A DNA stretch of 64,000 nucleotides. Origin: Vicugna vicugna. Lineage: Eukaryota. Under the pieces are notes generated by a model. The model did no database searches, had not been told where the DNA came from, and saw nothing but the letters and a program-made list of their open reading frames with translations. Both the position numbers and the translations under genes were made by a program. The stretch is from contig MU057744.1 of NCBI GenBank assembly GCA_013265495.1, positions 1,763,524 through 1,827,523 on the forward strand. The letters run 5' to 3'. The stretch's first letter is position 1. The number at the start of each line of letters is the position of its first letter. Shown piece after piece: positions 25,302-52,491 of this stretch.

Positions 25302-26049
25302 GTACTGTCCTCTCCCCGTCCGTCCTCTCCCTGTTTGTCCTTGCTGCAGCGTCACGGTGGGGGCTTTGCAGCCAAGCGCGGGAATGAAAGGGGGAGCCCG
25401 GCAGTCTCAGTGTGTAGCTGCGGCCGAAACTTTGGAGCCCTCTTCCTGAAGGACGCTTGAAGGGTTAGGTCATCCCTCAGCAGAGTGGCTCAGGGCCGCA
25501 GGGATGGAGGGGAGGAGTTGGGTTTCCCTTCCCGAAGAGTCTGTGCGAACAGTGGCTCTGTAACCCTGATCTTGCCCCAGCCCACCAGCTCTCCTAAGAG
25601 GAGCTCGTCTGAGGTGTTTGTGGGTGTACACCGGTAGTGGGAGCTAGGGTTTCCCAAACCTTCATTATTTATACTCTTAAGCATAAGCCATATTAATTAA
25701 TTAATTAGTGCAATATTTTGCTTTAAGGGGAACACTGTAGAAAGGCACTTAAGAAGTATGTGTTGAATAAATGAATTTTAAAAGGTTCTATGAAGAATAC
25801 ATTTCCTCTAAGATAATACCTTTTAAGAATATGGTTTAAGATGTCAACTCCTTAATCCTTTGCTCCTGCAGTTTGAGTTGGTCTTAATATCCATGTTTTA
25901 AATTTGGCAAAAATGGTGAGTTCTGTGTGTTTCATTATAGTACCTGTATTTTTGGATAGAAAGTTTAAAATCTGTGCCACGTATTCTCTTATGACTGATA
26001 CTTTCAGTGTAGTGTATGTGCATAAGTGTTCAACCTTAAATAGCAATAG

Positions 26050-26240
26050 GTAATGTTTACATAGTGCTCGTCATGTGTAACAGGTGTTTATGAGACCTTC
26101 ACAATTATTTAATCCTCACAGTAAGTCTATGAGGATGCTCTGTGTACTGTGCTCATTTTACAGATAAGGCAACTGAGATTCAGAGGCTTTCCATCTAGTA
26201 AATGGGAGAGGCAGATGCCAAGCCCAGATTTCAGTCCTTT
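26050..26240 (-). mobile_element. MIR SINE
   Basis: MIR core ttaatcctcacag...cattttacagataaggcaactgag. Other MIR remnants at about 3930-4160, 10940-11000, 36150-36260, 47190-47290 and 49620-49770. Confidence 0.7.
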
Positions 26241-26821
26241 GAGTTGAGTCACTAGGTAGGTAGCATCTTGACAGCTCTTAGTAGGTACTGAATCCTTCTA
26301 TTTACTGCAAGTAAAATTAGCTATCTATCTGGTAACAGTAATATTCATAATCGTAATATAACTTCTTAACTTGAGGTCAGCTTCATAGCTACAAATATTT
26401 GGTAGACTTGTATTATGAAGCAGATGTTGCTAGGTATACAAGATCCGGAAAAGGCCCCTGTCTTAAAGGATGTGTGGTCCACACGACCTCTGGGATGGGA
26501 GCAAGTGATAAAAGCCTTCTAAGCCAAGACCTGACAGCTGGGAAGAGTTCTGCAACTGTCTGGTGTAGATTAAGCCCTCGACACTAACTGCTGTTTTTCA
26601 GATATTTTTAATTTGAGGTGTGATTTACATATAATTAGCAAATTTTGACAGTTGTATACATGAGGCACCACCACCCAAAGCTACACGTGGAACATTTTAT
26701 TCATCACAGGCTTCCTCTGCCCCCAGAGTAACCACTTTCTAACTTCTATCATCACAGATCAGTTCTCATGCTCTTCTTATACTAGGCACAAAGGAAATCA
26801 CTGTAAAATATTTTATCTTTT

Positions 26822-29724
26822 TTTTTAACATTTTTTTTATTGAGTAATAGTCATTTTACAATGTTGTATCAAATTCCAGTGAGGAGCACAATTTTTCAGT
26901 TATACATGAATATACATATGTTCGTTGTCACATTTTTTTTTCACTGTGAGCTACCACAAGATCTTGTATATATTTCCCTGTGCTATACAGTATAATCTTG
27001 TTTATCTATTCTACATTTTAAAATCCCAGTCTGTCCCTTCCCCCCTCCCACCCCCTTGGCAACCACAAGTTTGTATTCTATGCCTATGAGTCTGTTTCTG
27101 TTTTGTATTTATGTTTGTTTTTTTTTTAAGATTCCACATATGAGTGATCTCATATGGTATTTTTCTTTCTCTTTCTGGCTTACTTCACTTAGAATGACAT
27201 TCTCCAGGAACATCCATGTTGCTGCAAATGGCATTATGTTGTCAGTTTTTGTAGCTGAATAGTATTCCATTGTATAAATATAACACTTCTTCTTTATCCA
27301 GTCATCTGTTGATGGACATTTAGGCTGTTTCCATGTCTTGGCTATAGTAAATAGTGCTGCTATGAACATTGGGGTGCAGGTGTCATTTTGAAGTAGGGTT
27401 CCTTCTGAATATAAGCCCAGGAGCGGGATTCCTGGGTCATATGGTAAGTCTATTCCTAGTCTTTTGAGGAATCTCCATTCTGTTTTCCACAGTGGCTTTC
27501 TTTGCTTCCCTCTCCCACTCTTAATGATTTAGATGTCTTCTTTTACAATTTTGTGCTTATTCTATTTGGAATTCATGGTAGTTATCACCTTTCCAGTTAT
27601 GAGTTTCTCATTTTTGTAGCATACTGCTTCTTTTCTGTTTAGAGTAGACCTGTCAATATTTCTTTTAGCATGGGTTTAGTGTTGCTAAACTCTTTTAGTT
27701 TTTGCTTGTCTGTGAAGTTCTTTATCTCTTCTTCTATTCTAAAGGATAGCCTTGTTGAATAGAGTATCCTAGGCTGCATCTTTTTTTCATTCAGGACTTT
27801 GAATGTATCTTGCCACTCCCTTCTGGCCTGTAGTGTTTGTGTAGAGAAATCAGCTGAGAGCCTTATGGGGGTTCCCTTGTAACTCACTCTTTGTTTTTCT
27901 CTTGCTGCCTTTAGGATCATTTCTTTATCCTTGACTCTGGCCATCTTGATTATGATATGTCTTGGTGTGAGTCTGTTTGGGTTCTTCCTGTTTGGGACCC
28001 TCTGAGCCTCCTGTACTTGGATATCTGATTCCTTCTTTAGTTTTGGAAGTTTTCAGTCATGATTTCTTCCAATACCTTTTCAATCCCCTTTGTTCTTTCT
28101 TCCCCTTCTAGAACCCCTATTATGTGTACATTGGCATGCTTTATATTATCCTACAGGTCCCTTATATTGTTTTCATTGGTTTTTATTTGTTTTTCTCTCA
28201 GCTGTTCTGATTGGGTGCTTTCTGTTGTCCTGTCTTCTAGGTCACTTATTCGTTCCTCTGCATTATCTAGCCTGCTTTGTACAGCCTTTAGGTCAGCTCT
28301 CATCTCAGCAAATGAGTTTGCTAATTCTACTTGATTCTTCTTTATAGCTTCTATTTCATTTTTGGCATATTTTATATTTCTAAACACTATCTGTTTTAGT
28401 TCCTTCAGTACTTTGGTCAGTCCTTTTTTGAAATCTTGATCTAGTAGGCCATCAATGTATATTTCATTGATCATGCTTTCAGGGGATTTCTCTTGATCTT
28501 TTAATTGGGAGTGGTTCCTCTGCTTTTTCATATTGCTCATATCTCTCTGGCCCTGTGGCTTAAGGAGTATCAGTTATCTACTGTGTTTATTTATTTATCT
28601 ATCTAAAGCCTATGCAGGAGTAAAACCAGTGGGTGGGCAGGTCACTCCCCTTCCTGATGCTGCAGTCAGATGCTGCACTCTGGCGAGGCATGTGGGCGGT
28701 TCACACCCCCTCCCAGCACTGTAGTCAGGTGCTGCACTCCTGCCAGGAAGGTGGGTGGCCACTCGCCCTCTCCCAGCACTGCTCTGTGCAGCTGCCCGCT
28801 CTGCCTCGGGTCAGCACTTCGTAGGCGGGCTCGGGGAAGACCGTGGAACAGCCCCGCCCCTGCTCTGTGCCAAATCTCGCTCCTTGTTTGTCTTGGCAGC
28901 TCGAGTTCTCTGAGGGACCAGGGCAGAAAGATCCTATTGCCTCTGGCTGTAAACAAGTCTCAGTCCTACCCAGGAGGTTGCGGAGCCCCTGGGTGCGGAT
29001 TCAGGGCTTGGCCCCACCCCCGCCAGGGCGCTGCGCACAGGAGGACATGGCGGCTGTGGCTGCGCCCCGCCTCTCTTCTCACGAGAAGCGCCAGTAATGG
29101 TGCCGTGGGTCTGAGGAGACAAAGGCTACAGTACCCCTCCCCCCAGGGCACACCAGCTATGTTGCTTTGCTTTTTTTGCAATTTATGGGGGACCGAGATG
29201 GTTTTGCTCAGTATCCCCTCCCAGCCACGGCGTGCAGCCCCCTGCAGTCCCCCCGGGGCTGCCTCAGTGCAGCCGCCCCAGTCCTCTGCCCGGTTTGGGT
29301 GGCCTGTACTGGCCCCCAGCTGCCATCTTGCATCTTGGGCTGGGTGTCGCGGGGATCCTCTGTGCCCGTTTAACTTAGTTCTGTCGGTCAAGTGGTGCTC
29401 CGGGCATATCCGAGCCTCGGAGGCTCCCCCTCCATCCTGTTGGCCTCTCCGTTGGAGGGGCGAGACCCAGCAAATGAGCACCAGTTCTCCTTTGCCACTC
29501 CCTCCCCGCGGGACCGGTCCTGCACCGTTTTGCTTTTTCTTCTTTCTTTTTTCCTTTTCTTCTACCAGATTTTTGGCATCTTTGTCTTTTGAAAAGGGCG
29601 ATGTTCTGTCAGAGTTCGGCAGGTGCTCTGGTTGGCTGAGTGGGTCTGTAGATGTGAGTTTTGATGTATTTGTGAGAGAGGGTGAGCTATAAGCATCCTT
29701 CTACTCTGTCATCTTGCTTCTCTC
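26822..29724 (-). mobile_element. Relatively young LINE-1 with both ends present and most of ORF2 deleted (~2.9 kb)
   Basis: 17-bp TSD AAAATATTTTATCTTTT at 26805-26821 and 29725-29741, with a TT|AAAA endonuclease site on the minus strand. Element has a 5' start GAGAGAAGCAAGATGAC, GC-rich 5'UTR, ORF1, ORF2 C-terminus (PLWKTEWRFLKRL...MFIAALFTIAKTWKQPKCPS), 3'UTR and A-rich tail. Confidence 0.93.
27639..28540 (-). pseudogene. L1 ORF1 (p40), disrupted
   Basis: Two pieces: MSNMKKQRNHSQLKDQEKSPE... (coiled coil) and MARVKDKEMILKAAREKQRVSYKGTPIRLSADFS... They are separated by a TAG at 28151-28153 and an apparent 1-bp frameshift near 28045. Confidence 0.9.
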
Positions 29725-30799
29725 AAAATATTTTATCTTTTAATCGAACTTCTTTTGCTCGACATACTGTTTTTGTGATTGTTCATGTTTTTGTATGAAT
29801 CATGAGATTACTTGCTGAGTACCATTGCATTCAACCACAATTTTTTCTTATCCATTCTCTTGTTGATAGAGATTTGGGTTGTTTCCAGTTTTTGTTGAAT
29901 AAGACTGCTATAAACATTTGTAGACAAGTCTTTGTGCAGACTTACACTTTTATTTCTTTTAGGGTAAATAGGAACAAAATTGCTGAATCATAGGACAGAT
30001 TTATGCTTCACTTTACAAGAAACTTCCAAATAGTTCTGCAGATTTACTCCCACAACCAATATATGAGGGTACCAGTTGCTCCCACATCCTGGCCAAGAAC
30101 TGATCATGACTCTGATTTTAGCTCTTCTGGTAGATGTGAAATGGTATCTTATTGTAGTTTTAATTTGTGTTTTCCTTATTAATAATAATATTGGCATCCT
30201 TTCTTGTACTCATTGACCATCAGCGTATCTTTTTTTATGTAGTGTTCACATCTTTTTTCCATTAAAAAACTGGATTGTTTTATCTTTTATTGAGTTGTGA
30301 ATATGTATGTGTGTGTGTGTGTATGTTTGTATGTATATGTGTATATGTATGTTTTCCGTGTGTATAGTTCATAAGAACTATTTTGGATATTGGAAATATT
30401 TCCTTCCAATTTGTGGATTGCTTTTTTCATTTTCTTAATGAGATCTTCCAGAGAGCAAATGTTCTTAATGTTGATGAAGTCCATTTATGATTTTTTTCCC
30501 TCTAAGGCTATATGTTTTATGTCCTAAGAAATCTTTGTCTTTGTAAAAACAAGTATTTTCTCATGTGTTTTCTTTTAGAAGTTTTATTATTTTAGCTTTT
30601 TTGTTTAGGTCTGTGATCTAATTTCAGTTAATTTTTGTTTGTGACGTGGGGTTAAAGTCAAGATTCATTTCTGTCCAGTTTTCCCAGCACCATTTGTTGC
30701 AACGGTTACCTTTTCCTCGTTAGTTATCTTGGCACCTTTGTCGAATATCTGTTGGCCGCTCTGAGCCGTTGATCTGTGTGTCTGTCCTTGGTGTCTGTT

Positions 30800-31745
30800 G
30801 TTGTTGCTTATCTGTTCAGTGACTCTTCTTCACAAGTTCTATAGAGTTTGTTTTGTGGGGGGTGGTTGCTGAAGCCTCTGTTTCATCCGCTTAGTGGTCA
30901 GTGATTAGACAGAGACTTCCTTAAGTGCCCTGGACTTGTAAGTCTCCCAGTCTCTGCTAAGGGAGGGACTTTGTGTGCATGCTGGGACGTGCCTTTGGCC
31001 TACAAGCAGGCAGTCCCCACCTCAGCCTTCACCTACAGCTTTGCAGGGCCTCCTGGTCTTCTGGAGGTGAGGACTTGGGCCCTTCTCAGGCCTTCTCAGC
31101 ACACACAGCCCTGGGGGTGAGCATGGCTTCCCCAGTCACCGGGATTATGCTGTAACTTGTCACAGCCTGCTGTGGACGCCTCACTCCCTAGCTTTTCTTT
31201 TCAAATAGTTTGGACAGATTATTGTTTGCCTCAACTGTTATTGTCACCTCAGGCAGCTGCAGTGTTAAAAAATATTGCCTGTGATTTTTTTTTCGACAAG
31301 TGTCCCTGGGAAAAAGCGTGTTTGCACTGAGCAAGCTCTGAGTCAGGTCAAATAAGGATAAGTGTTGCAAGTGGGATTTTCCAAGGAACTGCCAAAAAGG
31401 TGCGATAACACCAGTTTCCTGTGAATGGGGCTTTGAGGAGCTCCAGCGCTGCTCTGTCCCCTCAGAGGCTTCTAGTTTACTGATTTTCATTTTAAAGGAC
31501 TATTGTTTTTCAATGTACCATGCATCTAGGAAGAAGGGACTAGCCCTGAGGCAAGTTAAAATACCACTCATCTTGCTGTCCTTGCAAATATTCAGCCATT
31601 TTTATTGAATAAACACTCCCCAGATTATAGCCAGTATTTGATTAATTTTCAAAGTGCCAAGAAAGTTGGTTTTGACAAGTAAGTTTTTTCACTGTTCTCA
31701 TTTTATGGAGAAGAGCAGTTTTGGAGGTCCTTACTCTGCCATTCG
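30800..31745 (-). mobile_element. Ancient L1M 5'UTR-like fragment
   Basis: Resembles old L1M 5' ends; ends in ccttactctgccatt (minus strand AATGGCAGAGTAAGG, an L1-type start). Confidence 0.55.
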
Positions 31746-33286
31746 TTCTGATGTCACTCAGAGATAAAGATCAGAAATAGAACAGGCCGCAAAGAGATAA
31801 GAACATTGCAGGGAAACATTGATGGTCCAGCTGAGGTTGGAAACTGCAAGCTGGTAACAGTGCCAGTCTGCCTGGGCGTGTGTTCTTCTGCAGGCTCAGC
31901 AGGGCGAGGATAGATGCTGAGAATGAAGACGGTAGAATCAGCCGAAGATGAGGGTTAGCAGAGCAAGTAAAGAAGAGAGTCATAGGCAGGAAGGTCCCGA
32001 GAGCTGCATAGATGAGGAAGGAGGCCGCAGAGCAGGAGAGTGTGTTTTAATGGGAAGTGAGAAAACTGGGAGGAAAAAATGTGATCAGAGGATGGCGTGG
32101 TTTCTGCACGTTTAGGGTTTAGAGGCAGAACCACTGATGGTTGGTTGTCAAGGTTCCTTCTTACTGAAGTTATGTGAGTAATGAGCGGTGGGGCTCGTGT
32201 GGAATACTCCACAGTGGAGGCCGAGGTCTGGTTTTTGTTCAGCAGTGTGTCCTGGACTCCAGCAGCGTGCCTTCCTCCTAGTAGGGATTAAACTGATCTT
32301 TATGGAAAACACGTAAGAAAGCTTCATTTTCCATTTGCAGGCATCAGTAAGGGGAGACATGGCTTCTGAGCTCGCTGTTGAAGGAATCAAAGTATCAGCA
32401 AGTAGAGATCAGTGGGAGGAAGGGCACTGCTGCCGGGGGAGGTGTGCATCTGAAGTAGTCAGGTGTTTCTGGAGAGAGCTGAGGGAAAACTGATAGCCTA
32501 GGTAGGCTAAATTACAGGGTGTATGTGGAGAAAGAACAGTAAAAGCCGGCAGTAGAAAGACTAGGATAAAACATGGAATACCTTGAAAACCCAGCTGAGA
32601 AGTGTAGCGACTCTGTACAAGGAGCTGCAGCCCGGTGTGTGGCGGGCGTTTACGGCCCAGCGTGACTGTGGTGCAGCGGGCTGGGGCTAGTAGGGGAGAA
32701 CGTGCAGTGGGGAGGTCTGTCGGAGGGCTGTGGGGAGATTATGATCTTCAGAGCCAGGATGGTGAGGATGGCAATTAAGATAGATGTGAGAGATTTTATG
32801 GAATAAAGCGAAATGTGTCTGTTGATCACGAAGGTAAGATTTAAAACATCAGTTCTTTTAACTGGGTGTACTGCTCTTGCTGACATTAAAAAAGTTGAGG
32901 GTATAAAATTTTGGACAAAATTGAGGGTAACCTTACAGAATTAATCAGTTATAATTTATTTTTTGTTAGCAGAATGCTGCTTATGTATTCTAGAATGAAT
33001 ATGAACTCAGTATTTAAATTATACTACCTTTGTAGTATTATTTGAAATAATATTTTAAAACATTTGAAAAAGTCATTTATTCATTACAAGATTTTATTAA
33101 GATTTGAATTGCTTACTTAGAAATACCAGATTAAAGGGATGACTAGTTAATAGCAAATATTTTTTTAAATTATTATGTAAATATACCTAAAGGATTCTAG
33201 ATAGGTGTAAAATTTTCAAGAGTCTAGCCCTCCTTCCTTCATAGTTTTAGTAAAACGTTCAATTTTCATACATAATTAGACCTTGA

Positions 33287-33300
33287 CTGCCCTCTAGTGG
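33287..33300 (-). promoter_or_regulatory. Candidate CTCF site
   Basis: Minus strand CCACTAGAGGGCAG fits the CTCF core CCASYAGRKGGCRS exactly, in AT-rich non-repeat DNA. Confidence 0.55.
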
Positions 33301-34096
33301 TAAGTGTCTTTCAAATGCATGATTTGGAGCACAGTGTGTCGGAATTTTAGGTCTTGTTTGAGTAGTTGTTGGTGTTTGCCCTCTCAGTGCTAGGGTCTGT
33401 GGAGCAGTAGGAACACAGGGTGTTTTCAGACCTTGCCTTTAATCCTATATGCTTTGTTAAAGGCATAAGTCCAGAATTTCATCTCTGAGTAGCCTTGATA
33501 AAGTGCACTGGGAATATATGTGTATTTTTTAAAATGTCAATTGCTGTTTTATTGATTATAACAGTATGAAAGGTCACTTATGTAGCATACTTACATGAGC
33601 TGGAATTGCCCACCAAGCATGTATGACTGTGGAGTGGTTAAAATCAAGCAAAGCGCAAGAATTACACGTTTTGGGGAGAGTTCTCTGCCCTTGACCGTGG
33701 TGCTGCCGGTTGGTTGTTTGCCTGTTCTCCTGTGTCCCGGGCTCAGAAGAGTGTTCCTAGATCCAATTCTGCAGGTGTTTACAGGGCGCCTACTTTGTGT
33801 TCAGCTGCTTGGTGCTGTAGGGTATGCAACAGAAATTTGTTACAGATGGCCTGGGCCTTTTCCATTCAGTATTTGTATTTTATCAAGAACAGAGTGCTGA
33901 GCTGTTGCTTCTTTAAACCATGGCTACAAGCTACCCTACACTAATGCAGGAAGTACAAACGATAAACTAGGAGCCAAAGGACATTCGGTGGAAGGTCCGC
34001 GGAGGGTGCGAGCCTATGTGCGCTGATAGCTGAGAACAGCATGTTCGTCTCGAGTTCAGGGTGGTGCCAGCCATGAGCGTAGGGCTGGTGCAGCAC

Positions 34097-34700
34097 TTAC
34101 GAACCAGCCGGCCTCTCCTGGGCGTGTATCTGAAAGAAGCAGAAATGCTGATTCAGAAAGATACGTGCACCCCAGTGTTCACAGCAGCGTTATTTACAAT
34201 AGTCAAGATATGGAAGTAACCTAACTGTCCATCGACAGAGGACTGGATAAAGAAGTTGTGGTGTATTTATACAATGGAACACTGCTCAGCCAGAAAAAGA
34301 ATGAAATCATGCCATTTTCAGTAACATGGGTGGGTTTGGAGGGTGTTATGCTAAGTGAAATGAGTCAGACAGAGAAAGACAAATAGTGTATGATATCATT
34401 TATATGTCGAACCTAAAAAGTACAACAAACTAGTGAATATAACAGAAAAGAAGAAGCAGACTCACAGATACAGAGAACAGATTAGTGGCTCCCAGTGGGG
34501 AGAGGGGCAATATGCAGGTAGGGATTAAGAGAGACAAATCTATGCGTGTGAAATGAGCTGCAAGGATCTGTTGCACAGCGCAGGGAGTACAGCCCACATT
34601 CTGTAATAACTGTGCATGCGGCAGAACCTTTAAGAGCTGCGAATCACTTTATTGTACACCTGTAACATGCATAATACTGTCCTTCAATTAAAACAAAAGA
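34097..34700 (+). mobile_element. 5'-truncated L1 3' end
   Basis: ORF2 C-terminal motif (tgcaccccagtgttcacagcagcgttatttacaatag), 3'UTR and A-rich tail. Confidence 0.88.
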
Positions 34701-37092
34701 ATAGTGCAGCAGCTTAAGATCAGGAGAAAATGCCAGGATCAAGAAATTCTTCATCATTACCTCTTGCTGCTCCACAATTTCTATACAGTCCCCTATTTTT
34801 ATTACCTCTATTGGTAGAGAAAACTAGTGGTACGTCTTAATGCCAAAAGAGATTGGTGGTGGCCTGTGGGCTTTTAAGGAAGTTATGAAGTGGTTATATT
34901 ATTATACTAAATTGCCTTCCAACATATTTGATTTAAGCTAATATTAAAATTCGTTTGCATTTCTTGAGTCCACTGTGCATGTTTGTGGAGTCTGATGTCC
35001 TGGAAACATAAAACGGGAAAAGGGACCTGTGAGTTTTTCAGTAGTTTAGTTTTCTAAAAAACTGAATGTTCTGTACTTAGGAAATTGGGAGTTGAATCTG
35101 TCAGTGCCTACTAGAATATAAGTATAATTTCAGTTGAAAATGTTGATATAACTAAAAATAAGGACAAATATGTGAGAGCATTTTATTCTCCTGAAAAGTA
35201 ACCTCTCAATGTTTGTGTAGTTAGTAGCTCATATGCTATACCTCTTAGATTAATTTAGAGAACATTACAACAATGATTTAAGGAAGCAGTGGATCAGTGC
35301 TCTATTTTTTGAGGAAATACTAACTCTGGAAATGTGGCTTTTCCTTTTTTTTTTTTTTTCTTTTTAGTATTGCAGCACTTAGAACTGTTTTCTTAAAACT
35401 TAGCTCTTTTTCCTCAAAAAAGTAGTTTATTATCCTGTCTTTTAAAAGTCATTCAGTTATTACGTAAGAGACATGAGAAATTTTTGCTCTTCACTATAGA
35501 AATGTTTTTCTCATCCAAGCCCTTTTCCCAACTTAATTGCATCAACAGCAAAATTTTTATCTTCAGAGAATTTTGTACATGCTGTATACTACATACAGTA
35601 GTAAAAATGTGTCATTTAAAAACTGTATTAATGCATTTATTTTTCAGTAAAAGGTTTGAATGTATTGCATGAGTGTGAAATTTGAGGCCATCACTGCTGG
35701 ACACAGGAAATTGGCTTGGAGCAGACTGGGTGGTTAGGCGTGTGCATGTGTGTGTATTTGGGGAAAGGTGGAAATACAGAGTGTTGCTTATTCAGAAACT
35801 TAACCCAGCTTAGGAAAGGTTTATCAGCAGGTACAGTTCATCTACATGCCCTGTCATCACGGCAGACATCATCAAAGAGCAGTAACGCGTCATTTCATTA
35901 GATCAGCTCCTGTTGTGTGCTAGGACCTCTCAGTCCATTTTTCTTTACTTCAATCTAATCTTAGCTTGTTAAAGATGATCTGTGTGTTTATTGGCAACCT
36001 TTAGAGCTTATCTTGATCATTTTTATTTATTTGGTCACATCAAACCAGTGGTTAAGCTTTTATTAAACCTTTATTTTTATAAGGTCTTTCCTAACTCTTG
36101 AGAACAGATGAGAACTAATATTTACCCAGTACCGACCGACTCTGGGCCAGCCCCTGGAGGCAGGGGGCAAGAGCACAGGATGCAGCACTTGGCAGCTCCC
36201 CAGTTCTGCCATTTGTTAGCTGTGTGACTTCGGTTGAGTCACTTATATTTCCTCCTCTGCGTCTAAACCCCGCTCTTAACTGAGGTGACTGTACCCTCTG
36301 TTACCCGTTCAGTGGACCCTCGCCCCCACACACTGTGACTTCCTAGGGGGTTGCCTGCTCCAGGCCATCCTGGCCCCAGGGCCCCTGGCCTGAGGTCCTG
36401 CACTCCGGGCTCACTCCTCTCCCGTTTGTCTCATCTCCTGCAGGTATCTTTTCCCCTCTGCTCTGCGCTGATCTTGATGCGGGACGTGACCCTTTCATTT
36501 TCCCTCACATCTCTTAAGCACAGCATTTGTATGTACAGCACATTACAGTGAAGGTGCGGAGTTGACGAGTTACGCCCTTAGCGGTCTGCCTGGGGACTGT
36601 AGCAGTGGTTCCCTGCTCTGCTTACTTGCCGCTGTCTCCTGCAGTGACCTCTCTCCTCACTTCCTGGCCGTTTCTTCCCTCTTCTCTCCCACCCAAAAAT
36701 CTCTGTTCATTTCTTATACAGAGCAGTTTAAACCTCTTTTATTGGCTTCTTCCCATCCATGCCTTCAAGTTCATCTCATCTTCCGCTACCAAACCACCAA
36801 GTGGTTGGAAGGCTTTCTTCTACAGAAAAAAACAAACCCCAAATTGTACATTATCTGCCTTTACAGTGTTAGTGAAAACCCAGCGTCTCCAAAGGAAGCC
36901 CTAGTACTTTGCAGTCTGGTTCCGTCTGACGGTGGCTGATCACATACATGAAAACACTTTGTAAGATGTGAGCCAGGATAAGAGTCAAAGGTCATTACCG
37001 TCCTCCCCATAGGTTTAATTGCTGAAGTCATGGGTGTCTGCCCTCATCTTTCACCTTCTCGCAGCCCTCACCCCAATCCCTCTCGTTCACAG

Positions 37093-37301
37093 CCGCCAGG
37101 GCAGAGGTGTGCAGTGGCACCGGGGAGCGGTTCCGGATCTTCCGGGCCGAGAAAACTTACGCCGTGAGGGCCGGAAGGTGGTATTTCGAGTTCGAGGCTG
37201 TCACTGCTGGAGACATGCGAGTGGGCTGGAGCCGGCCAGGCTGCCAGCCTGATCAGGAGCTGGGCTCGGATGAACATGCCTTTGCTTTTGATGGCTTCAA
37301 G
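37093..37301 (+). CDS. RYR2: RYR2 coding exon (~exon 28), SPRY2
   Basis: tcacag|CCGCCAGG...TTCAAG|gtgagt; 209 bp; [34 protein letters not shown]...AFDGFK. Confidence 0.96.
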
Positions 37302-38879
37302 GTGAGTGCAGACCCCAGGGTGTGGGCCTGGACTTTGTGGGCTGCTGTGCACTGGGTGTCCACACTGCCCTGGCTGTGCCTTGTGTGGTCGGGTAATGCG
37401 AAGACCTCCCTGAGCACGAACGGGAGAAAGTAGCTCCTTGGAAAACTTCTGTCCTTGAAGTCTCAAAACATTTTCCTTCACCCTGGGAATACAACGAAAC
37501 TCAGGGAGTAGAACGTGGATTCTCTTTCATATCAAAGAGCTGAATCATTCTTCTCTACCGAAAGTATTAAAAATCCATGTACTGATTAAAAATACATTCA
37601 CTTTGACACAGCAGTTCCACAGAAGGAATTCACCCTCCAGCAAGAATTAATGATAGTTATAAACATTCAGTAGCCATAAGAATGCTTTTTGCTGTTTGTA
37701 ATCACCAAGAGGTTTCTTTTTCAACATTATTACTCATTTTTATTTCTTAAGTTTGGTGGAAGCTGGTCAGGTGCTGCTATTTGTGCATTCTATAAATATT
37801 TAATGATTATTTTATCTGTATAAAATATTTTAAAATTTAAAATACAAAATATTTATATATGAACATAGCCACAGTAGAATAATACTAGTCATTTTTGGTT
37901 GATGAAATTCTTGGCATTTTATTCTTTTATTTTATTTTTATTTGCTAATTTTCTCCGGCGAATTTGTATTCCTTTTGAGAAATACAAGTTTTTCTAATTA
38001 AAAAAGGAAAATTAGAATAAAAAAAGCAATCATGAAGATTTGCTACTTGGGAACGTTTGTGGGAAAGCATTTCTAGGCTAGAAATTAGTGTTGTGTCTTC
38101 TAGGACAACTGACCCACTTTGTTCTGAAACGTTACATTTCCTGAATCTTGTTTTTTAATTTGGATGGAAAAATTCTGATACCTAATTTAGCTAAATAAAT
38201 TTTTTTAAAGTAGGATGTGCTATGCTTTAGAAGAGTCATATCGTTTCACTTTGGTGACTGTATCCTGTTACATATCAGTTCACAATGAAGGTGATGCTTA
38301 AGGGGGCAATTAAAAGATTTTTCTGACAAAATCATATAACTAATTTTGTGTCTGTAGATCAGTAGAATATACTTATAGATTCAAAAGCCACATTTATGAA
38401 AACTGTTCCAAATGTATTGATGAAATTTCACCTACGTCTATAAAACAATGTGGCCATATGTATTCAGTTTTTGGCTGCTTATTTCAGTAAATATCTTAAG
38501 AATGTTTTTAAGTTTGATTTGAACCTTTTTTGTTTTTAGCATGTACTGAAGTGCTTCTAGAATTCTGTTTGGCTGAAGTGTCGGTGTCTTTGGTTCCCAG
38601 GAATGGAATTTTATTTTGAAACAGATGAAAATTCGAGTGTCATTTTCGATGATAAACTCCCAGCTTGATTCTCTGCCCATGATTCCCTGTATTTTGGGGA
38701 CTAGAGAAAAACAACCCGTGTCCTGGGAAGCGTTCCCTGTGGTGAGACAGATACATTTCTAGAGACATAGTGTTCGTTGTAATGGAAAGTATGTGGGATT
38801 AGAGTTTTTAAATAGTGGACGCTGAAGATCACGGAGTATACCGGGTTTTGTTGCGATGCAGTGCGTGACACCATGCGGA

Positions 38880-39760
38880 TGCTAGGGGTGCAGAGCCCAG
38901 CGGGCGGTGTGCGGCGGGCCCCCCGCCCGCGCGGTGACCCGAGCCCTCTCCCCAGGCCCAGCGCTGGCACCAGGGCAGCGAGCACTACGGGCGGCCCTGG
39001 CAGGCGGGCGACGTGGTGGGCTGCATGGCCGACGTGACCGAGCGCACCATGGTGTTCACGCTCAACGGCGAGATCCTGCTCGACGACTCGGGCTCCGAGC
39101 TGGCCTTCAAGGACTTCGACGTCGCTGACGGTGAGTGCGCGGCCTCGCGCGGCCTTCGGGGGCGCCCAGCCGCGCTGCTGCTCCTCGCAGGCGGCGGCGA
39201 CAGGGCGGGGACCGGCGGTGTCAGCCTCGGGCCTGCGGTCGGTCGTGGAGCGGGCGCTCTCCACTGCCGTCTCCACCGCTTAGCTGGCCGTTCCCTAAAG
39301 CAGCAGGGGCTTTTCAAGTGCGAATCAGGAAAGAAATGGCAGGTAAAGGGAGAGTTTTCCACAAGTGTTAAGTTCTGCCCTAGAACCTCCCTGTTGAATC
39401 AGCTGCTGATAGCTTCTTTCGGGTCATGCGTTTCAAAAAAATAGTGGGACCGACGGCGCGCCAGGCCCTCTGCTGGGAGCCGAGACGACAGAGAGGGGTG
39501 AGGGACCTCCCTCTTCACGCAGACCTGAGTGCACCAGGGGCAGGCAGCGCCGGGGTGGTTTCTGCTGAGTGCGCGGGCTCTGAGGAGAGGAAGCGCGGGC
39601 AGCGCTGCGGGGGCGCGGCGCGGGGAGAGGCCCCTCTGCCGGCGGGCCCGGACCTCGGGCAGCGTGTGCGGGGAGGCCCAGAGCCCTCTGGGAAGCGGGG
39701 GGCAAGGCCGCTGCTCGTGCTTCACAGCTCTGCTGCCCTAGGCTGGCCCCTGGCCCCCGG
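38880..39760. promoter_or_regulatory. Intragenic CpG island-like segment covering the ~exon 29 region
   Basis: Very high GC and dense CpG with an abrupt transition from the AT-rich flank at 37500-38700; interrupted by a milder patch at about 39300-39440. Confidence 0.75.
38956..39130 (+). CDS. RYR2: RYR2 coding exon (~exon 29), SPRY2
   Basis: ccccag|GCCCAG...GCTGACG|gtgagt; 175 bp; [58 protein letters not shown]. Confidence 0.95.
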
Positions 39761-39931
39761 GGGTTATTTGAAGCTACATTAATGTAAGTGAAATAAAGGT
39801 AAAAACTGAGTTTCCAGCGGTGGAAACTTAGGTTTCAAGTGCTCAGCACTGACCTCTAGCCAGCAGCGCCCTGCTGCACAGCAGAGCTCGAGAGCACTTA
39901 CATCATGTCGGGAGGTTCTGTTGGGTAGTGT
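39728..39931 (-). mobile_element. MER3-like hAT DNA transposon, GC-shifted
   Basis: tttcaagtgctcag...catcatgtcgggaggttctgttgggtagtg follows the MER3 layout. Confidence 0.65.
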
Positions 39932-42079
39932 TACCCAGAGCATGTAAACAAGATGATGTTTAACAAAGTACTGTATAAATATTTCATTTCAAACTGAGCT
40001 TGCACTTTTTTTTCAAAATGGCTTTGAATATATCCTATTACTTGAATATATGTGCATGTATTGTCTTGGATTTTAAGATCTGCCTCAGTTGGTACTTTTA
40101 AAATTATGTAAACTTGTCACCAGTCCTCAGAAAGTTAGCCAGCTCATTATTTGCATTAAGTTCTCTAGTTATTCATTCAGTAAGCTTTCAAGCAGTTATG
40201 ACCGTCATTTCTCAGACATAGATTTGTGGAAACAATAGAAGCTTTGCATTTTTACAACTTAATTTCTGTTTTGCAGTCCTGCGTCTCAGGTGGTGGGTGA
40301 AACTGGCACTCTAACCCCCCATCCCTACCTCCGCTCCTCGGGTGTTGCTCTTACGAGGGCCTGTGTATCACGGGGGAGTTGGGAGAGGGGCTTTATATGT
40401 GTTCTCTGTCTACGCTGTCTCAGGCCCTACAGATAGGGCCTGAGATTCTGTTTTTTCAGTTGGTTGTTATTTTAAAATGCTGGCATATTATGCCTTTCTT
40501 TTTATGAAGTTAAATTCTTGAAATGCCGATGTGAGTTGTGTTTGTTTAGTTTATGCCACATGGATTCACAGAATGATGTTAGAACTGTACACAGTGTGGA
40601 ACGCCCAGTCGTGCTGTTTAAGCAATGACAGATGCCAACGCTGCAGCATTGTTGTAGACACCAGTTGCCACTGTGGTGACAAAATGGGCTCTGACGTGGG
40701 TCTGAGGGCCACAGTCATAGAAACAACTTTGTTTTCTGACTCTACATTTCACATCATTTTTAAAATTTAAAAAATGACTTGAAACTTATACTCTGTTATA
40801 AAGTTAATACAGCATCCTCACAAATTGTCTGAAAATGTTGTGATCCATATTGTTGGACTGCGGTTGGAGGTGTTGGGAAGTATCCTTTTGGTCTCTAAGG
40901 CAGATTAAAAACTTTATTTAGCTGTAGTCGTTAACTCTTGACTTCGTAGGGGTTAGTCAGAATTCTGGGTTTTCTTCCATAAAAAGGACTGCAGAATTTA
41001 CACGGGCCTAGGACTTCCAGATGCTTTCTGGGCATGGAATTTTCCCATACCCTCCCAAGTATCTTTACATGGCTTCTTAAAAAATTCACTGGAGCTGCTC
41101 TGGGTGTAACAACAGTGGAAGGCCCTGAGACAAGCTCCCCAACTTACAGTCGCCACTAAGAGAGCCCGGGCTCAGTTGAAAAACCATTCATTTAGGCCAG
41201 CAGGAATGCACTGTGGTTGCTAAAGGACTAAGAAGTTTTCGTAAGCACTCTATTTTCAAATTGTTCTTACAGCTAGCTTGTCTTTACATCTGGGCCGTGC
41301 CTGATTTGGTGTTTGTTAAAATCTTCATAATTTCTTTTTGTTGCTGCAGAGGTAGTTCAGTCATATATACGCTGGCTCGTAAAGCAATCAAAAGAACTGT
41401 CTCTTGATGTCTCTGCCTTTTGTACAGTTTACACAGCCGAAATGATTTCTTGACCAATGTAAGTTGTTTCTTGATAACATCAAAAGGAAAATCACAAAAA
41501 TCTGTAAAAGACTGATGGGGTCACCCAGTGAAATCCAGGTGGCGAGACAGCCATCCAGTTCATTCCAGCCCATAGCGATGCGGGCAGGGCTTTTCTTAGG
41601 AGCTACAGATCCCTTTCCCAAACAGGGAATGCGCTGTCCTTCTGCAACCACAGGCTCCACCGTGAAGCTTCCGTGTTAACTGGACAAAGAACGATTGCTG
41701 CGACACACCGGCCCCGGGAGAAGGACAGGAGCCTTCAGTCCCTCCCTCCCCTCGAAGGGCCAGGACCTGTGGTCAAGATCAGGAGCCGTGTTATTAGACT
41801 TCTAAAAGTAGCAAGTCCTCTTCTATGAGTCTCCCTTCTATTTGGCTTTTTTTTTTTTAATCTCTTCAGAGTATCTGTAAGTAAAGTGAACAGATTAATT
41901 GAATCTCCATTTTTCAGAGAGTGCTATGGCTGTAATGTCAACAAAGGAACAGTGCTAGGCAGGAGCAGTCCCTGGTGAGGTCTGCTGTGACTTTCTCCTT
42001 GTCTCTTCTTACCACTGCACTGACAACTAGTCAGCATTGGGACTGGGGAGAACCCAGGAAAAGAGGCTGCAATACGCTG

Positions 42080-42700
42080 TGCTGTAGGCAGAATTCTAAG
42101 ATGGTCTCTGGGAGTCCTGCTCCTGGTGGACATGTCTTGCATAACCCTCTCTTCTGTCATGTGGACAGAGTCTGAATTAGATGGAATATAGCTCCCATGA
42201 TCAGGTTACTAGTCAGTTAACTGTGAGTTAATCAAATAGAGATCATCCAGGTGGGCCTGACCTAATCAGGTGAACCCTTAAAAGAGATTGGGTCCTTCTT
42301 GAAGTCAGAGGGATCCAAAGTGTGAGATGTGCTCTCCTTCTGGCCTTGGATGAACAGACTGCTGTGGTGTGAGAGGGCCACATGGTGGGGGTCTGCAGGA
42401 GGCCTCTAGGAGCTGAGAACAGCCCCTGGTTGACAGCTGGCAAGAAAAAGGAGACCTCAGTCCTACAATGACAAAGAACTGAATTCTTTTAACAACCAGG
42501 GAGCTTGGAAGGGGATCTGAGCCTCAGATGAGAACACAGTCCAGTCAGTACCTTGATTTCATCCTCATGACACTGAGAAGAGGACCCCAGTCGTGCAGTA
42601 CCTGGACTTCTGACCTGCGAGCTAAGAGACAATAAATGGGTCTTATTTTAGACTGCCAAGTTTGCGGTACTTTGTCTCATAGGAATGGGAAACAAATACA
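42080..42700 (+). mobile_element. MaLR solo LTR (MLT1E/F-like)
   Basis: gtaggcagaattctaagatgg start; ggcctctaggagctgag; aataaa; ends aaataca. Confidence 0.8.
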
Positions 42701-44756
42701 TTCACCAAAGGGGTGTTTTAGTTTCTGCTGAACCTTCAGACTCACAGAACTATCAAAGTTACAAACAACCCAAATTTTAAAACACCTATAAAGGAAAATA
42801 AGAGGATGCTGATTCTAGGGTTAGAGTGGTGGTTTCCTCAGGCGGAGGGGCCGGGAGATGGGGAGAGCAGCGTGCTATGGTTAGATGGCAGATACTGTTG
42901 AGGTTCTAGGTTTCCTTTGGGTGGTGGCTTAGAAGATGCTTGTTACAGTATTGGAAAGGACCAACTACACATGTAAAAGCAGTGTCTTGGACAAAAGGTG
43001 GTAATTGATCCACCATCTGCTTCTATATACTTGAGGTTCTTAAGCATGTGTGTAGAGCTTGGGGGAAGAGCTGGGAGACAGGGAGAGCTGACGGGGAAGG
43101 CCTGATCTTGAGTGATGTTCCTGATGAGGTGAAGGGTGTGATCTCAAACACCAGGAGATGAAATCGGAAGCCTTTTTCATTTTACAGCAGAGAAAAAATG
43201 GGCCTGGTAATAGTAATAGCCTCTGTCTTACAAATAGGGTGCCTCGTGTTTGTAGGGGAGCCCTCCAAGCCAAAGCAGTGGCTTTGTCTTTCCCACAGTC
43301 CCAGATTTCTTCTCTGTGTGCTTCTCCGGCTTCATCAAGCCCCTAATGTCCAGCTGCCTTATATCCTGCATGTTCCGTGGAACCACCCTCTCTGGAGTCC
43401 TGTCCCTAGGGGGCGGGGCGTCTGCCCTCTGTTGCCCAGCATGTGCCTGCACAAGGCAGTCCTGCTCGGAAGACTTCTGAACAGGAATTCTTACTGATGT
43501 GTCACCCCTTTTTGCTGGGAGGCTTTAGCTCCCTAAAATCTCTCCCCCCATCCTGCAGTGGCAATAAGCTGGTGGGGGGGGCACATTCTGTCCCTCATCG
43601 TCTCCTGAGACCACCTCAGGGAAAGGAAGAGTCCTTCAGCCAGTAGCTGAAGCTGCCCCAAGCCACAGGGAGAAATGGCCCTTTCTTTGGCCAGCTTTTG
43701 GGTGGGCTTCATCCCTTGCTTTTTTGTGCCATCAGAATGGTAGTATCTCAAGAGCTGAGATTTAGGTATTAGTCTGGAGAGAAGAAGCCAAGAAGACTAA
43801 CAAGTGGCCCTTCCTCTAGGTCTCTGGAGAAACAGAAGGGGATTTTAGGGTTCACACATGATTTAGCCCAGCCCACCATAAAAAAAAAAACCCAAATACT
43901 AGCTAGTAACAAATTATACTTTTTAATTTGCCCTATGCCCTCTTCTCTGCGTTATGGGGGTAATTTATTCCTTAAAGCACACAAATAGGGCAACTTTCCA
44001 TAGGTTAAAAACTATCACTAATTCCTACAGGAAAACATAATATGCATTTCTGACCCCCCAAATAAAGCCTCATTTATACTAAAACAATACCGAATTCCCC
44101 TGAAATCGCATTATAGTTAACATAATTATACCCTAATGTAGAAAGGCATTCCTTCCTGTATTTGGTCTCTAACTTCGTATTTTCCTTGCTCAACTCCGTC
44201 TCTTTTTTAATTCACATAGTATAAACTTCAGATTCCCTCACAAAATATAAATATTACACTCCAAGTTTAGTAATTTGATCCTCAGTGTAAGAAAAGCAAA
44301 ACAAACAGCGACAACGAAGCTAGAAAGAAAACAGTCAAGACCAAGGAATGTTGGCGAAAACCTGGGGACAGTGCAACATTTACCTGACGTGCCGACGTCA
44401 GAGGGGAACTGATGCGTGGCGTTTTCTCTGACACAGAACTTGCGCTCCACACTTGCTTGAAGGAGGAACCCACGAGACACGAGCCGGTTCTCACTACTGA
44501 GAAGATAACTGCGTGTCTCACTTCTGTTGGGGTTTGCCGCCTCCCAAAGAGGGTGAAATCTCAACTATTCTGACTTAATGAGAAGCGATGCCTTGCAGGA
44601 ACATTAAATGAAATGCCTCATAAAGTGAGATTCGGATTCTTCTCATCCAGGGCTTCTCGGCGGTCCTCAGGGCTCAGCAGGCATGGCTTCCGAGGAGATG
44701 TGTCTGCATCTGAAGACAGCGTCCTGAATACAAAACTCACATCTCTGTCCCAGCTC

Positions 44757-45060
44757 ACACGGACTGGATCTTGTCTTCCCAGAAATTCATATGGTGAAGT
44801 CCTGACCGGTAGTGACCATACTGAGGTCCTGAGGGTGGGGCCCTGGTCCAGTACAACTCGCATCCTTCTAAGAAAAGGAAGAGACACCAGGTGCACAGGG
44901 GAGGGCATGTGAGGACGCAGTGAGAAGGTGGCCGTCTGCAAGCCAAGGAGGGAGGCTGAGGAGAAACCACACCTGCAGACATCTTGGTCTTGGGCAAATA
45001 AATAAGTTAAAGCCACCCAGCCTGTGGCATTTTGCTGGGGCCGCCCTGGGGGACTGATCC
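44757..45060 (+). mobile_element. MaLR solo LTR (MLT1A/B-like)
   Basis: gtgaggacgcagtgagaaggtggccgtctgcaagccaagg...aagccacccagcctgtggcattttg. Confidence 0.8.
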
Positions 45061-48000
45061 CCTGCCCTCTACACTTACACCCCTCACCAGTCTAGCACTG
45101 GTCTCAAGTTCCTCCTGTGTGCAAGTGCTTCAGGTTTCCGGTAATGTGAGGAGCTGATCATATCCTTAAAGCATGGAAGAGTCAGCTAGCATTTTGCCAT
45201 GTGGTGAAAGAATAGTTACTTTGTCTGGAGAGCATCTGTATTTCACAAAGTAGGCTATGAGTGCGTGTCTTGTGTAGCGTAAATGCCTCATTACATTGGT
45301 GCTTGTTCAAGGTTGTCAGCTTTTCTGTGAGTAAAGATCACCTCAGGGCCCTCTGGTCCCATACCCGTGATGATTATAATCAGATCCAGAAATGATGCCT
45401 TTGATTCTGTGTCTGCTGTTTGAAAGGGCAGAAGCAAAACTGAATTCTTGGTGCTGAGACCACATAGAATTCCTTTCCTTGGGAGGGAAACAGAAGGAGA
45501 TTTTTGTAATTAAAATAGCTGCATAGCTTTAGGCAGAAAAGGCGTTTAAGGAAAAAGATGGGGGATGACTTTCCATTATCGATTTTATTAGTTGCCTTTA
45601 AAACGAAGAAGAAAAAAAACAGAATATTTTGCTGTCGGTCTGTACATATAATTTATTTTTATCCTCTGTTGAAATATGAACCATTTGGCAGATGTATGTG
45701 ACTCATTGAGAAGATTACTTTCAACAAGGTGTGAATTAGGGCTGGGTCTGCACTGTCCCAAATGCCTACCTTCCTTGCTCCACCGTCACATCTGTCCTTT
45801 CTGTCATTAGTGTCACTCTGTACAGTCTGCTGTTGATACAGACCTGGGACCCAGGTTTGCATCAGACCTGGGAAAGTAAGGTCATTGGGACTCTCCCTGA
45901 TTAAGAGGTAGCACTTGTGAAGGAAGGAAGAAGCTCGGACTGTGAGTCCCTGCTGTGGGGCAATCCAAACAACCATAGATTTGGGTTGGGACACTGGCTA
46001 TTTTGAGTGAAGATGAAGACAGTCATAAAGTGGTAGACAAATTCTAAAGAGTAAGGAGATGTTGGAGACCAGCAGCCTCATTGTTTTGTCTAAAATCAGA
46101 AAAGGGAACTATCCTAGACACTCTGTGGACTTTTCCAGGAATGAAACTCTTAAATAGGTACTACGTTCACGGAGTACTTTAACAAGTGAAGGGATTTTTA
46201 CTATTCAAATTCCAGATTATTACTTAATGTGTATTTTTTGAGCTTATGTGTATGTAATCTAAACAACATGTTATTTGAGGAAATTCATTGTGAAATAATT
46301 GGTGAATTCAGTGAAAACCAAACTGCTTAGCCTAAACTGCCCAGTTAATTGACAGTTAAATCTTATGTGCTGATGAATAGAGGAAATTTCTATCGTACAG
46401 ACCATTTTGAGAATAGCTAAAGTTGGTAGGTGGTTAATGACATAATTTGTATATATACTAGCCTATCTGCACATTGGCAGTTTTGCACGTGTGAATATAC
46501 ATCTGATTCTAGAAGGAGCAGTGTGGGCATACAACACCAATGGTTCGTTACCTAGGAATGCTGCCGAGCCAAACAGCAAAATTTAGTATGGGATGGCTTA
46601 ATTATACTGGAAAGGTCAAAGAATCAGAATAAAGGGTGTCAGAACCTTGTGTATATGAAACATTCTATTGTCTGGACTTGAATTGATGGAGAGAACGTGA
46701 TGGCTTTAAAATGGGTTTCAAGGTCAAAAATAAATATCCTACTGATCTTGATGCTCTGAAGTGAACCAAGAGCCAGGAGGAAAGTGTGGGAATGCCCCTG
46801 TCGTGCCAGCATTGTGTTACCAAGTCCTTGCACTAACGATACACCTGTATCATGGTAAATTCCCTGGGACCTCACTTAGCATAATTCCCTAATTCATGTT
46901 CGAAGCCAAAAGGGACTAGAAGAAACAGATAACCACGTCTGAAGCCCTGGGTTTTAGATCCAGTTCTGAAAATAATTCTTCCTGTGGGCCCTCTGTTTTC
47001 ATTTCCTTAAAATAAGAAAACATTAATTGGAAATGGTCATTTCATGCCTCTTCCAGTTTTAAAGATCCCAGAAATCTAAGGCAAGTGTTTTGGTTTTGGT
47101 TTTTGTTTTGGTTTTACCCTCTCTCTCTGCATTCTTGAGCATCCCATTTAACCAGCCGAAGGACCCTAGAGAAAGATTTAACATCTTAGTTGTTTTCTCA
47201 TCTTGAAAAATGGGGTTAGTATTTAATAATAAATGGTAAAGTGCTTACATATTATCTGGCACATAGTAGGCCACCAGTTAGTGTTACCCTTTCCTCTGAT
47301 CAAATAATTCACATTTACATGTTAATACTGGCCATTTTAGTCTGCTTTTGGCCATTTGGTTTTGGTTATAAATGTGAGTCCCAATTTGTATTTCAGAAAT
47401 TTCAAAATCTGAAATCATATATTCTTAGGAAAAGCTGGTATGCTTGTGATCTGCTTCATCTTCTTCTCATCCAGCCCCCACTGCAGATTTCTCGCCTGCC
47501 TCACGCCCCCACATCCTTGTGACTGCCAGTTCCTTCGCTGGACTTGCGTGCTCACAACACAGCCCTCTGCTCAGGAGTGGGGAGGCTCATCAGCAGAGAA
47601 AGTTAAAATTTGCTGAAGCCATCTGTCTTTTGTTGGAGGAAGCAATTTAGCCATAAGTTGTAGCTACTGTTTTAACAGATTTACAAATAGTTAGGGCGGA
47701 TCTGGCACAGGCCCGAGTAACCAGTTGGACCCGTGGGTACTAATTTAAGATCCCCTGCCGGGAGGAAACTTGCCTTAGATCTCATCAGGCTTTGCCGTTT
47801 GCAAGGTGTCAGTTAAGGTAAGCAGAATAGAAGACGGAGAACTCAAAGGACAGGCAGGTGGGACTGACACTTACCTGTGCCAGGTGTGTGCATAAACGTG
47901 TGGAAACCAGTTTTAGTGGGCTGGAATATTTTTTGCTCAGCCTGCCTCAAACTCAGAAAGAACTGAGCCTCAATTATCATGTTTTTCTGTGGACAGTTAC

Positions 48001-51400: not shown

Positions 51401-52282
51401 GAAGATTACATAGACGCGCCCTCTGCTGCAAAATGCCATCTCATCCCCTTGCCAGACAGTTAACAGAGTGAATGTAGTTTCCTCTTGTTCTTTAATAGTG
51501 GAAAGGTTAACTAGCCCTGCTACACACTGAAATATTTTGTTTCTTCTTTATTGCTCATTGCTGTTGCTTTTGACTTAGTTTCTTATTTAGCTTACTCTTT
51601 GATTTCATCTTAACTGTTTATGTTAATCGTGCATTGTCCTGCGTAATCTGTAGCGTCAGTGACATTGAAGGGGAAGGGACAGACGGAGGAGATTCAGTGG
51701 GATGTTGGCAAGGACTTCCAAATATTTCAATTTTTTCTCTCAATGCTTAGCTGCAGGGTACCTCAGGGAGAAAAGAGCAAAACTCTCTTCAAAGATCAAA
51801 AGCAACTATAAGTGAATTAAAACCGTTATAAATATTGCCTCCAATCATTTTTTCTTTGAGGTACATGCAAAGAAAGCTAACTCAGCGGTGTTGGTGTTTG
51901 CAATTTCAAGCCTCCTTCTATCTCACTTTCCCCCTCCGAGAGAGGCACGCGCACTTCTGCGCAGGCTGCGGAGTGGGGACCTCCTCCTGTGGCTGTGCAC
52001 CCTGAGACCCTGGAGGACTAGGGGCTGCCTAGCAGCTACCTCACAGAAGTCCAAGGGGAAAGAAGGGACCCCTGGGCCACATTTAATGGATTCTGATGCC
52101 AAGAGCAAATCCCGGTCTTCTGAGCCTGGCGTTGAGTACTTGCTGTGAGTGGTCTCTTTATCCTTGCTTTTGCCTCAGGGTGACGGCTCTCACAAAGGGA
52201 AGACTTCTGGAGCAACACTTTTGATAATTCCGTACCAGAAGGCTCTTATGCTAATGATACTGGTTTTTTTTCTTCTTCCCAG

Positions 52283-52491
52283 GGTTCATACCAGTGTGTA
52301 GCCTCGGAGTGGCTCAAGTGGGCAGGATGAACTTTGGAAAGGATGTCAGCACCTTGAAATACTTCACCATCTGCGGCTTACAGGAGGGCTATAAACCATT
52401 TGCCGTTAATACAAACAGGGATATTACCACGTGGCTGAGCAAGAGGCTCCCTCAGTTTCTCCAGGTTCCATCAAACCACGAACACATTGAG
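52283..52491 (+). CDS. RYR2: RYR2 coding exon (~exon 30)
   Basis: tcccag|GGTTCATA...ATTGAG|gtttgc; 209 bp; [39 protein letters not shown]...NHEHIE. Confidence 0.96.

Follow-up and report, generated by a model that had tools for sequence, protein, structure and literature searches.

Dogs and birds have stable GC peaks at PRDM9-independent hotspots, and hotspots that are directed by PRDM9 are expected to be short-lived. Two other described systems come close to the locus that we report here. The first is the exon-specific GC-biased gene conversion (gBGC) episode, in which substitutions from A or T to G or C (W>S; the reverse direction is S>W), nonsynonymous ones included, cluster in a single exon, the bias reaches into flanking non-coding DNA, and the outcome can pass for positive selection. 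Most described episodes are short, or 'punctual', and in the portion of Riffis et al. (2025, PMC12290510) on which we draw, equilibrium GC3 during exon-specific gBGC episodes is estimated at 94-95%. The second system comprises the 'biased gene conversion islands' and 'exonic CpG islands' of Cohen, Kenigsberg & Tanay (2011), which, according to the summary given in part of a later review (PMC8286816), are non-promoter islands with a CpG density explicable by substitution dynamics; the same summary describes high methylation and rapid deamination in biased gene conversion islands.

The window, by which we mean the whole 64-kb stretch of DNA that was analysed, is part of RYR2 in a placental mammal, the gene being on the + strand, and one of its exons can be set beside each of these systems. 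Like the GC peaks of dogs and birds, the peak at this exon is narrow and extreme in both GC and CpG content, in keeping with W>S drive that has acted on a single place for a long time; unlike dogs and birds, the genome from which the window comes possesses a PRDM9-like gene in which the four domain types are all present, such that a genome-wide PRDM9-independent regime is not expected. As in exon-specific gBGC episodes, one exon has clustered W>S changes, including nonsynonymous changes, the GC enrichment extends into flanking non-coding DNA, and the pattern could be taken for positive selection. Unlike most of the episodes described, the RYR2 exon lies in a full CpG island, its state has outlasted a duplication whose copies now differ by 6.8%, and its GC3 of 98% is at or above the equilibrium estimate in the cited portion of PMC12290510, which points to long or recurrent drive rather than to one short episode. 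Studies of gBGC episodes detect them by the clustering of synonymous W>S substitutions, whereas the RYR2 exon is known from its end state. Lastly, the core of the RYR2 island resembles the islands of Cohen, Kenigsberg & Tanay in being non-promoter and in having a CpG density that substitution dynamics can explain, but it differs from biased gene conversion islands, as characterised in the quoted part of PMC8286816, in that its CpGs turn over more slowly than the background: 69% of core CpGs are common to both copies of the duplication, compared to 33% in the rest of the duplicate. The core would fit a mix of the island classes that this summary distinguishes. The literature that we searched yielded no paper joining RYR2 with biased gene conversion and, on GC-biased gene conversion and camel, nothing relevant among the matches listed. 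We regard the locus as a striking case of a process that is already well known, made more useful by its pseudogene control, and not as a feature of a new kind.

The SPRY2 exon of RYR2 and its CpG island

Thirteen RYR2 coding segments, corresponding to residues ~700-1360, lie in order on the + strand of the window (tblastn, with RyR2 fragments from vole, P0001, and monitor lizard, P0013, as queries). The focal exon, at positions 38956-39130 on the + strand, is 175 nt long (58 codons and one base), contains 22 CpGs, and encodes residues 1142-1199 together with the first base of codon 1200. When translated in the frame that begins at 38956, it matches residues 1142-1199 of RyR2 in solved structures from end to end (best E = 2e-32), and RyR2 structures (E = 2e-32 to 2e-30) score better than those of RyR1 (~1e-25) or RyR3 (7e-20). 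The initial annotation had called this a SPRY2 exon of RYR2, and that identity is confirmed both by these scores and by the flanking RYR2 exons, which are in order. The preceding exon, at 37092-37301 on the + strand, has a GC3 of 0.70 and 94% identity to vole RyR2, and is also duplicated; the next, at 52282-52491 on the + strand, has a GC3 of 0.61 and 97% identity to vole RyR2. Both served as control exons.

The reading frame of the focal exon is intact, with no stop codon, and is bounded by a canonical AG acceptor (ccccag/GCC) and a GT donor (GAC G/gtgagt). Direct reading of the + strand gives gagccctctccccag at 38941-38955, the C-rich polypyrimidine tract and AG acceptor that had been described for this exon, and a GTGAGT donor at 39131-39136. 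Judged from its sequence, the focal exon appears to be real and spliceable. A few intron codons were also set against read-through ORFs of other genomes by visual comparison. The window donor has G at intron position +3, and four of these ORFs have Lys (AAR) at that codon, which implies A at intron position +3 in the genomes concerned. Between 73% and 90% of sampled words from the region 35300-45299 were found in public reads of three organisms (20 of 24 runs among the matches listed, from eight studies). These reads show that the region as a whole, with the focal exon not singled out, exists in independent data. A degenerate pattern for mammalian RYR2 DNA had no match in metagenome contigs.

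Third codon positions in the exon are close to saturation. A recount reproduced the earlier figure of 57 of 58 codons ending in G or C, the sole exception being codon 57, GCT; for the other 12 exon segments in the window, pooled GC3 is 468/675 (0.69, range 0.28-0.94; Fisher p = 6e-8 against the focal exon). The exon is surrounded by a GC-rich segment at 38792-39815 (1,024 bp, GC 0.66, CpG observed/expected ratio [o/e] 0.86, 94 CpGs), by far the largest of nine segments in the window with GC >= 0.65 (200-bp windows). The usual thresholds for a CpG island are a length of at least 500 bp, a GC content of at least 0.55 and a CpG o/e of at least 0.65, and by these values the segment falls within the sequence definition. 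Across the whole window, GC is 0.44 and CpG o/e is 0.39, and the DNA bordering the spike has a GC content of only 0.29-0.34 (38000-38599 and 39900-40199). The description of a CpG-dense spike beside very AT-rich DNA was thus accurate, the 1,024-bp island being set amid DNA of ~30% GC.

The spike consists of two blocks: a core at 38880-39300, which contains the exon (GC 0.741, CpG o/e 0.97), and a second, intronic block at 39429-39760 (GC 0.723). Within the core, the intron flanks of the exon have a GC content of 0.74 in the midst of ~30% GC DNA, a figure that describes a level of GC and not a polarised direction of change. We detected no Rfam family at E <= 0.1 in 36500-41500, and a search for tandem repeats around the exon returned only two trivial repeats; the GC richness is therefore not that of a known RNA or a minisatellite. 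A repeat family was also considered as the source of the 881-bp stretch that includes the exon, and was rejected on the basis that this stretch has just three matches in the 2.03-Gb genome, namely itself, the duplicate, and an exon of RYR1.

To place the amino-acid sequence of the exon, we gathered 195 RyR proteins, 175 of which could be aligned along the full 58 residues; isoforms from the same species are numerous among them, and the sequences are therefore not independent. The commonest variant, shared by 116 of the 175 sequences, two of which are from Homo sapiens (P0149, P0150), disagrees with the window at eight sites. These are the same eight sites at which the initial annotation had listed changes from human RyR2 (N>S, S>P, V>A, M>V, N>T, H>R, M>V and G>A), and the codons in the window are, in that order, AGC, CCC, GCC, GTG, ACC, CGC, GTG and GCT. 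A further 30 of the 175 proteins have seven differences from the window, since they too have Thr at site 28. The window codons also agree with the claim that seven of the eight replacements can be reached by a single A/T-to-G/C step; G>A is a G-to-C change, and none of the eight is G/C-to-A/T.

We compared the exon with 12 outgroup mammals: pig, muntjac, beluga, donkey, hyena, two bats, rhinoceros, chimpanzee, cotton rat, tamandua and armadillo. Across these 12, six replacements (S>P, V>A, M>V, H>R, M>V and G>A) are absent throughout, and these six consist of five W>S changes, one S>S change and no S>W change. Residues absent from all 12 outgroups account for 6 of the 58 focal-exon positions and for 10 of the 669 positions in the remaining exons (p = 8.5e-4), the latter count having been made after removal of four segment-end positions that read into intron. 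The idea that the residues in the window lack counterparts in outgroups thus stands for these six, but fails for Thr28 and Ser8, which other mammals have as well. Thr28 is present in 38 of the 175 sequences, from carnivores, ungulates, bats, beluga (Delphinapterus) and Tamandua, and also in one solved RyR2 structure; with such a distribution, it is not lineage-specific. Ser8 is also found in beluga, Tupaia and two bird RyR1-like sequences, Pro14 in Tupaia and one bat, and Arg30, among the 175 sequences, in three non-mammalian ones only (reptile and fish RyR2). Ala25, Val27, Val33 and Ala57 occur in none of the 175 aligned proteins, and among the RyR cluster members listed, many of them named mammals, no protein has the exon variant of the window.

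A similar set of replacements is found in the tree shrew. The RyR2 fragment of Tupaia chinensis (P0003) has N>S, S>P, N>D, M>A, M>V, I>V and G>R in the same exon, and all of these except G>R imply W>S changes, with codon paths deduced from the genetic code. The pattern hints at a parallel episode in another order, in which case the exon may have been struck repeatedly in mammals. In P0003, the preceding exon likewise bears separate W>S-type replacements.

A frameshifted copy of the exon

The same genome has a partial RYR2 duplicate of ~22 kb with five exons, at positions 25932-47856 of C6374, a 96-kb contig on which multi-copy repeats flank the duplicate. It corresponds to window positions 2087-4794 joined to 35243-55904 (+ strand), with the ~30 kb between these segments missing. 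Identity to the window is ~93%, and substitution divergence, computed over 20,654 well-aligned sites, is 6.8%. In the copy, the focal exon is disrupted by a 1-bp insertion and altered by amino-acid replacements such as W>R and Y>C, indicating that it is a non-functional pseudogene. It has identical codons at all eight derived sites, and its third positions are unchanged in 56 of 58 codons. Given that the derived codons are common to both copies, the GC-saturated, rewritten state is older than the duplication.

Wherever the two copies of the exon differ, the window keeps the pan-mammalian residue, which places the change in the copy. The changes in the copy of the focal exon number 10 W>S, 3 S>W and 1 other, compared to 17 W>S, 30 S>W and 6 other in the four control exons of the duplicate (10:3 against 17:30, Fisher p = 0.012). 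Expressed per available site, 10 of 53 W sites (19%) in the focal exon became S in the copy, whereas only 17 of 398 (4.3%) did so in the four control exons (Fisher p = 3.9e-4). Transversions account for four of these 10 W>S changes, and TpG/CpA-to-CpG changes for only three, a spectrum that fits a fixation bias acting on all classes of W>S change. The frameshifted duplicate provides a useful internal control, in which roughly one in five A/T sites became G/C in the absence of purifying selection, and it also shows the local bias acting at a second locus. A directional W>S process thus acts on this sequence without protein function, at two loci, and both before and after the duplication.

The two blocks of the spike have fared differently. 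In the core, the copy has a GC content of 0.747 and a CpG o/e of 0.91, close to the values for the window, and W/S differences between the copies are symmetric (~17:17 by hand tally), as expected of two sequences at the same high GC equilibrium. In the second block, by contrast, GC is 0.650 in the copy, and a hand tally gave ~32 sites that are G/C in the window but A/T in the copy as opposed to 2 of the reverse kind; these sites are not polarised, and the asymmetry could mean that the window gained G/C or that the copy lost it. Over the entire duplicate, the window is the slightly GC-richer sequence, having the G/C at 705 such sites and the copy at 499.

One other part of the duplicate stands out. 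The longest run without differences in the ~21 kb of duplicate is 213 bp, at window positions 52272-52485, and coincides with the exon at 52282-52491. The copy has two differences from the window over the 210 bp of this exon, where ~14 would be expected (Poisson p ~1e-4), and the other duplicated exons have diverged by 7-8%. This run could be the product of a short, later gene conversion, of constraint on the copy, or of chance.

Explanations for the W>S bias

In our assessment, the explanation of the exon pattern that is best supported, and probably correct, is GC-biased gene conversion. We propose that a long-lasting local bias towards fixation of W>S changes would have driven the exon, along with ~250 bp of intron on each side, towards compositional equilibrium, the most likely cause being gBGC at a recurrent or long-lived recombination-prone site. 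Such a bias would have saturated third codon positions, created the CpG island, and forced six to eight W>S replacements on a block that hardly varies otherwise among placental mammals. The bias would be that of meiotic gene conversion, and the replacements would be passengers, either mildly deleterious or nearly neutral. We observed the composition of the exon, its derived residues, the W>S direction of change, and a bias that operates without protein-level selection; an excess of W>S substitution at the synonymous and intronic sites of this lineage would follow from the end state. The initial annotation had proposed that gBGC rewrote the exon. In favour of this are the W>S direction, the absence of six residues from outgroups, the GC-rich intron flanks, and the gain of G/C in the pseudogene, whereas recombination as the cause is something that we infer. 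The multi-copy repeats around the duplicate are not obviously a high-recombination setting, and this counts against gBGC.

The same annotation described recombination-driven fixation as overriding purifying selection. This description may be overstated, because the RyR1 of this genome itself has Ser, Pro and Thr at sites 8, 14 and 28, and Arg30 occurs in RyR2 of reptiles and fish. Given that some of the new residues are found in RyR1 or in non-mammalian RyR2, the replacements may be nearly neutral.

The main rival to gBGC is a bias intrinsic to the CpG island that requires no meiotic recombination: once CpG-dense, the core would escape methylation in the germline, this hypomethylation would slow the decay of CpGs, aberrant base-excision repair of the TDG/MBD4 type would add TpG/CpA-to-CpG changes, and the island would maintain itself wherever it was copied. 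This is consistent with the persistence of the core as an island at both loci, including that of the pseudogene in a repeat-rich contig, and with the high proportion of core CpGs that the copies have in common. Moreover, TDG-driven TpG/CpA-to-CpG mutation has been proposed as an origin of CpG islands in the cited part of Talhaoui et al. (2014, PMC4041421), and three W>S changes among the 10 in the copy belong to this type. The other seven are not, however, and four of them are transversions. Hypomethylation lowers only the loss of CpGs, and does not raise the rate of W>S change per W site four- to five-fold, which is the difference seen between the focal and control exons of the copy (19% against 4.3%). 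Furthermore, most of the W>S replacements in the window, such as ATG>GTG and TCC>CCC, are independent of CpG creation. A process intrinsic to the CpG island explains the retention of CpGs but not the broad W>S spectrum, and we consider it unlikely.

An alternative that we consider very unlikely is that the island is a functional intragenic element, for example an orphan CpG island that serves as an enhancer or as an alternative promoter, in which selection keeps GC and CpG content high and the replacements are a by-product. The segment falls within the usual thresholds for a CpG island. Orphan intragenic CpG islands with regulatory roles are covered in part of a review (PMC8286816), but the same part finds little evidence of selection on CpG density itself. 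The pseudogene keeps its core island and has gained G/C outside the context of RYR2, and the searches for Rfam families and tandem repeats at the site provided nothing to support an element of this kind. It is more improbable still that the SPRY2 domain evolved adaptively, with the replacements selected for lineage-specific cardiac calcium handling and the GC richness incidental. Six lineage-specific replacements within 58 residues of a very conserved protein are what such selection might produce, but the replacements are W>S with a single exception, saturation is seen at silent sites, and the introns too are rich in GC. Indeed, clusters of this sort are known to imitate positive selection, as stated in the cited part of Berglund et al. 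(2009, PMC2631073). Both a selected regulatory island and adaptive evolution of SPRY2 are disfavoured by how the pseudogene behaves, since a copy with no function has the same directional bias.

Lastly, ectopic gene conversion from RYR1, which in mammals is usually GC-richer than RYR2, would account for Ser8, Pro14 and Thr28, residues that this genome's own RyR1 has at those sites, but it is effectively refuted, because the homologous RYR1 exon (L003 1512-1686, on G000:C1298) is less GC-rich than the RYR2 exon (GC3 38/58, flanks GC 0.53), is identical to it at just 126 of 175 nt with no tract of near-identity, and differs at residues between and around the three sites, which are of RyR2 type in the window (EHYGR as opposed to ELFGR).

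If GC-biased gene conversion is the cause, its persistence at this exon raises a question about PRDM9. The initial annotation had called the site a hotspot. The persistent local W>S bias agrees with this, but the state is old, predating the duplication, despite the presence of a PRDM9-like gene. That gene lies on C4951 of the same genome (G000), at ~23,300-36,400, with KRAB, SSXRD and PR/SET domains and a C2H2 zinc-finger array ordered on one strand, the array being broken by an assembly gap of 207 Ns. With such a gene in the genome, it is somewhat unexpected that the GC state was kept before and after a duplication that has diverged by 6.8%, and at two loci. A rather unlikely reading, and a more far-reaching one, is that the core of the exon forms a W>S hotspot which is sequence-autonomous and sustains itself. 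Having passed a threshold of GC or CpG content, it would have become a PRDM9-independent site of recombination initiation or repair, active for tens of millions of years, carried along by the duplication, and recurrent in the tree shrew. If this were true, gBGC would have a permanent trap in a coding exon of a gene essential to the heart, even though the mammal bears PRDM9.

RYR2 is among the most constrained cardiac genes, and the 58-residue block is near-invariant across placental mammals. Branch-site or dN/dS scans that include this lineage would probably call the exon positively selected; the evidence indicates that a signal from this exon in such scans should be treated as an artefact of gBGC. 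The case could be used to test whether replacements driven by gBGC in disease genes are deleterious and later compensated, and whether W>S hotspots that last for a long time are possible in species with PRDM9.

GC-rich sequence elsewhere in the window

Two further RYR2 exons in the window have a high GC3, namely those at 58134-58295 (51/54, 0.94) and 61797-62027 (66/77, 0.86), and part of the signal is therefore regional. The first of these lies inside a GC spike of its own, 275 bp long (58121-58395; CpG o/e 0.90). Neither exon has a cluster of replacements. The derived replacements in the exons of the window other than the focal one comprise seven W>S, two S>W and one ambiguous change, which suggests that a regional W>S bias may extend across this portion of RYR2. 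Three independent, lineage-specific K>R replacements (AAG>AGG) were found in the exons at 1909-2013, 10478-10534 and 37092-37301. Outside the exons, the window has a GC-rich stretch at 28626-29471 (846 bp, GC 0.64, CpG o/e 0.45). Near it, positions 26833-27497 match several places on contig C6374 at 68-74% identity, and are probably an interspersed repeat.
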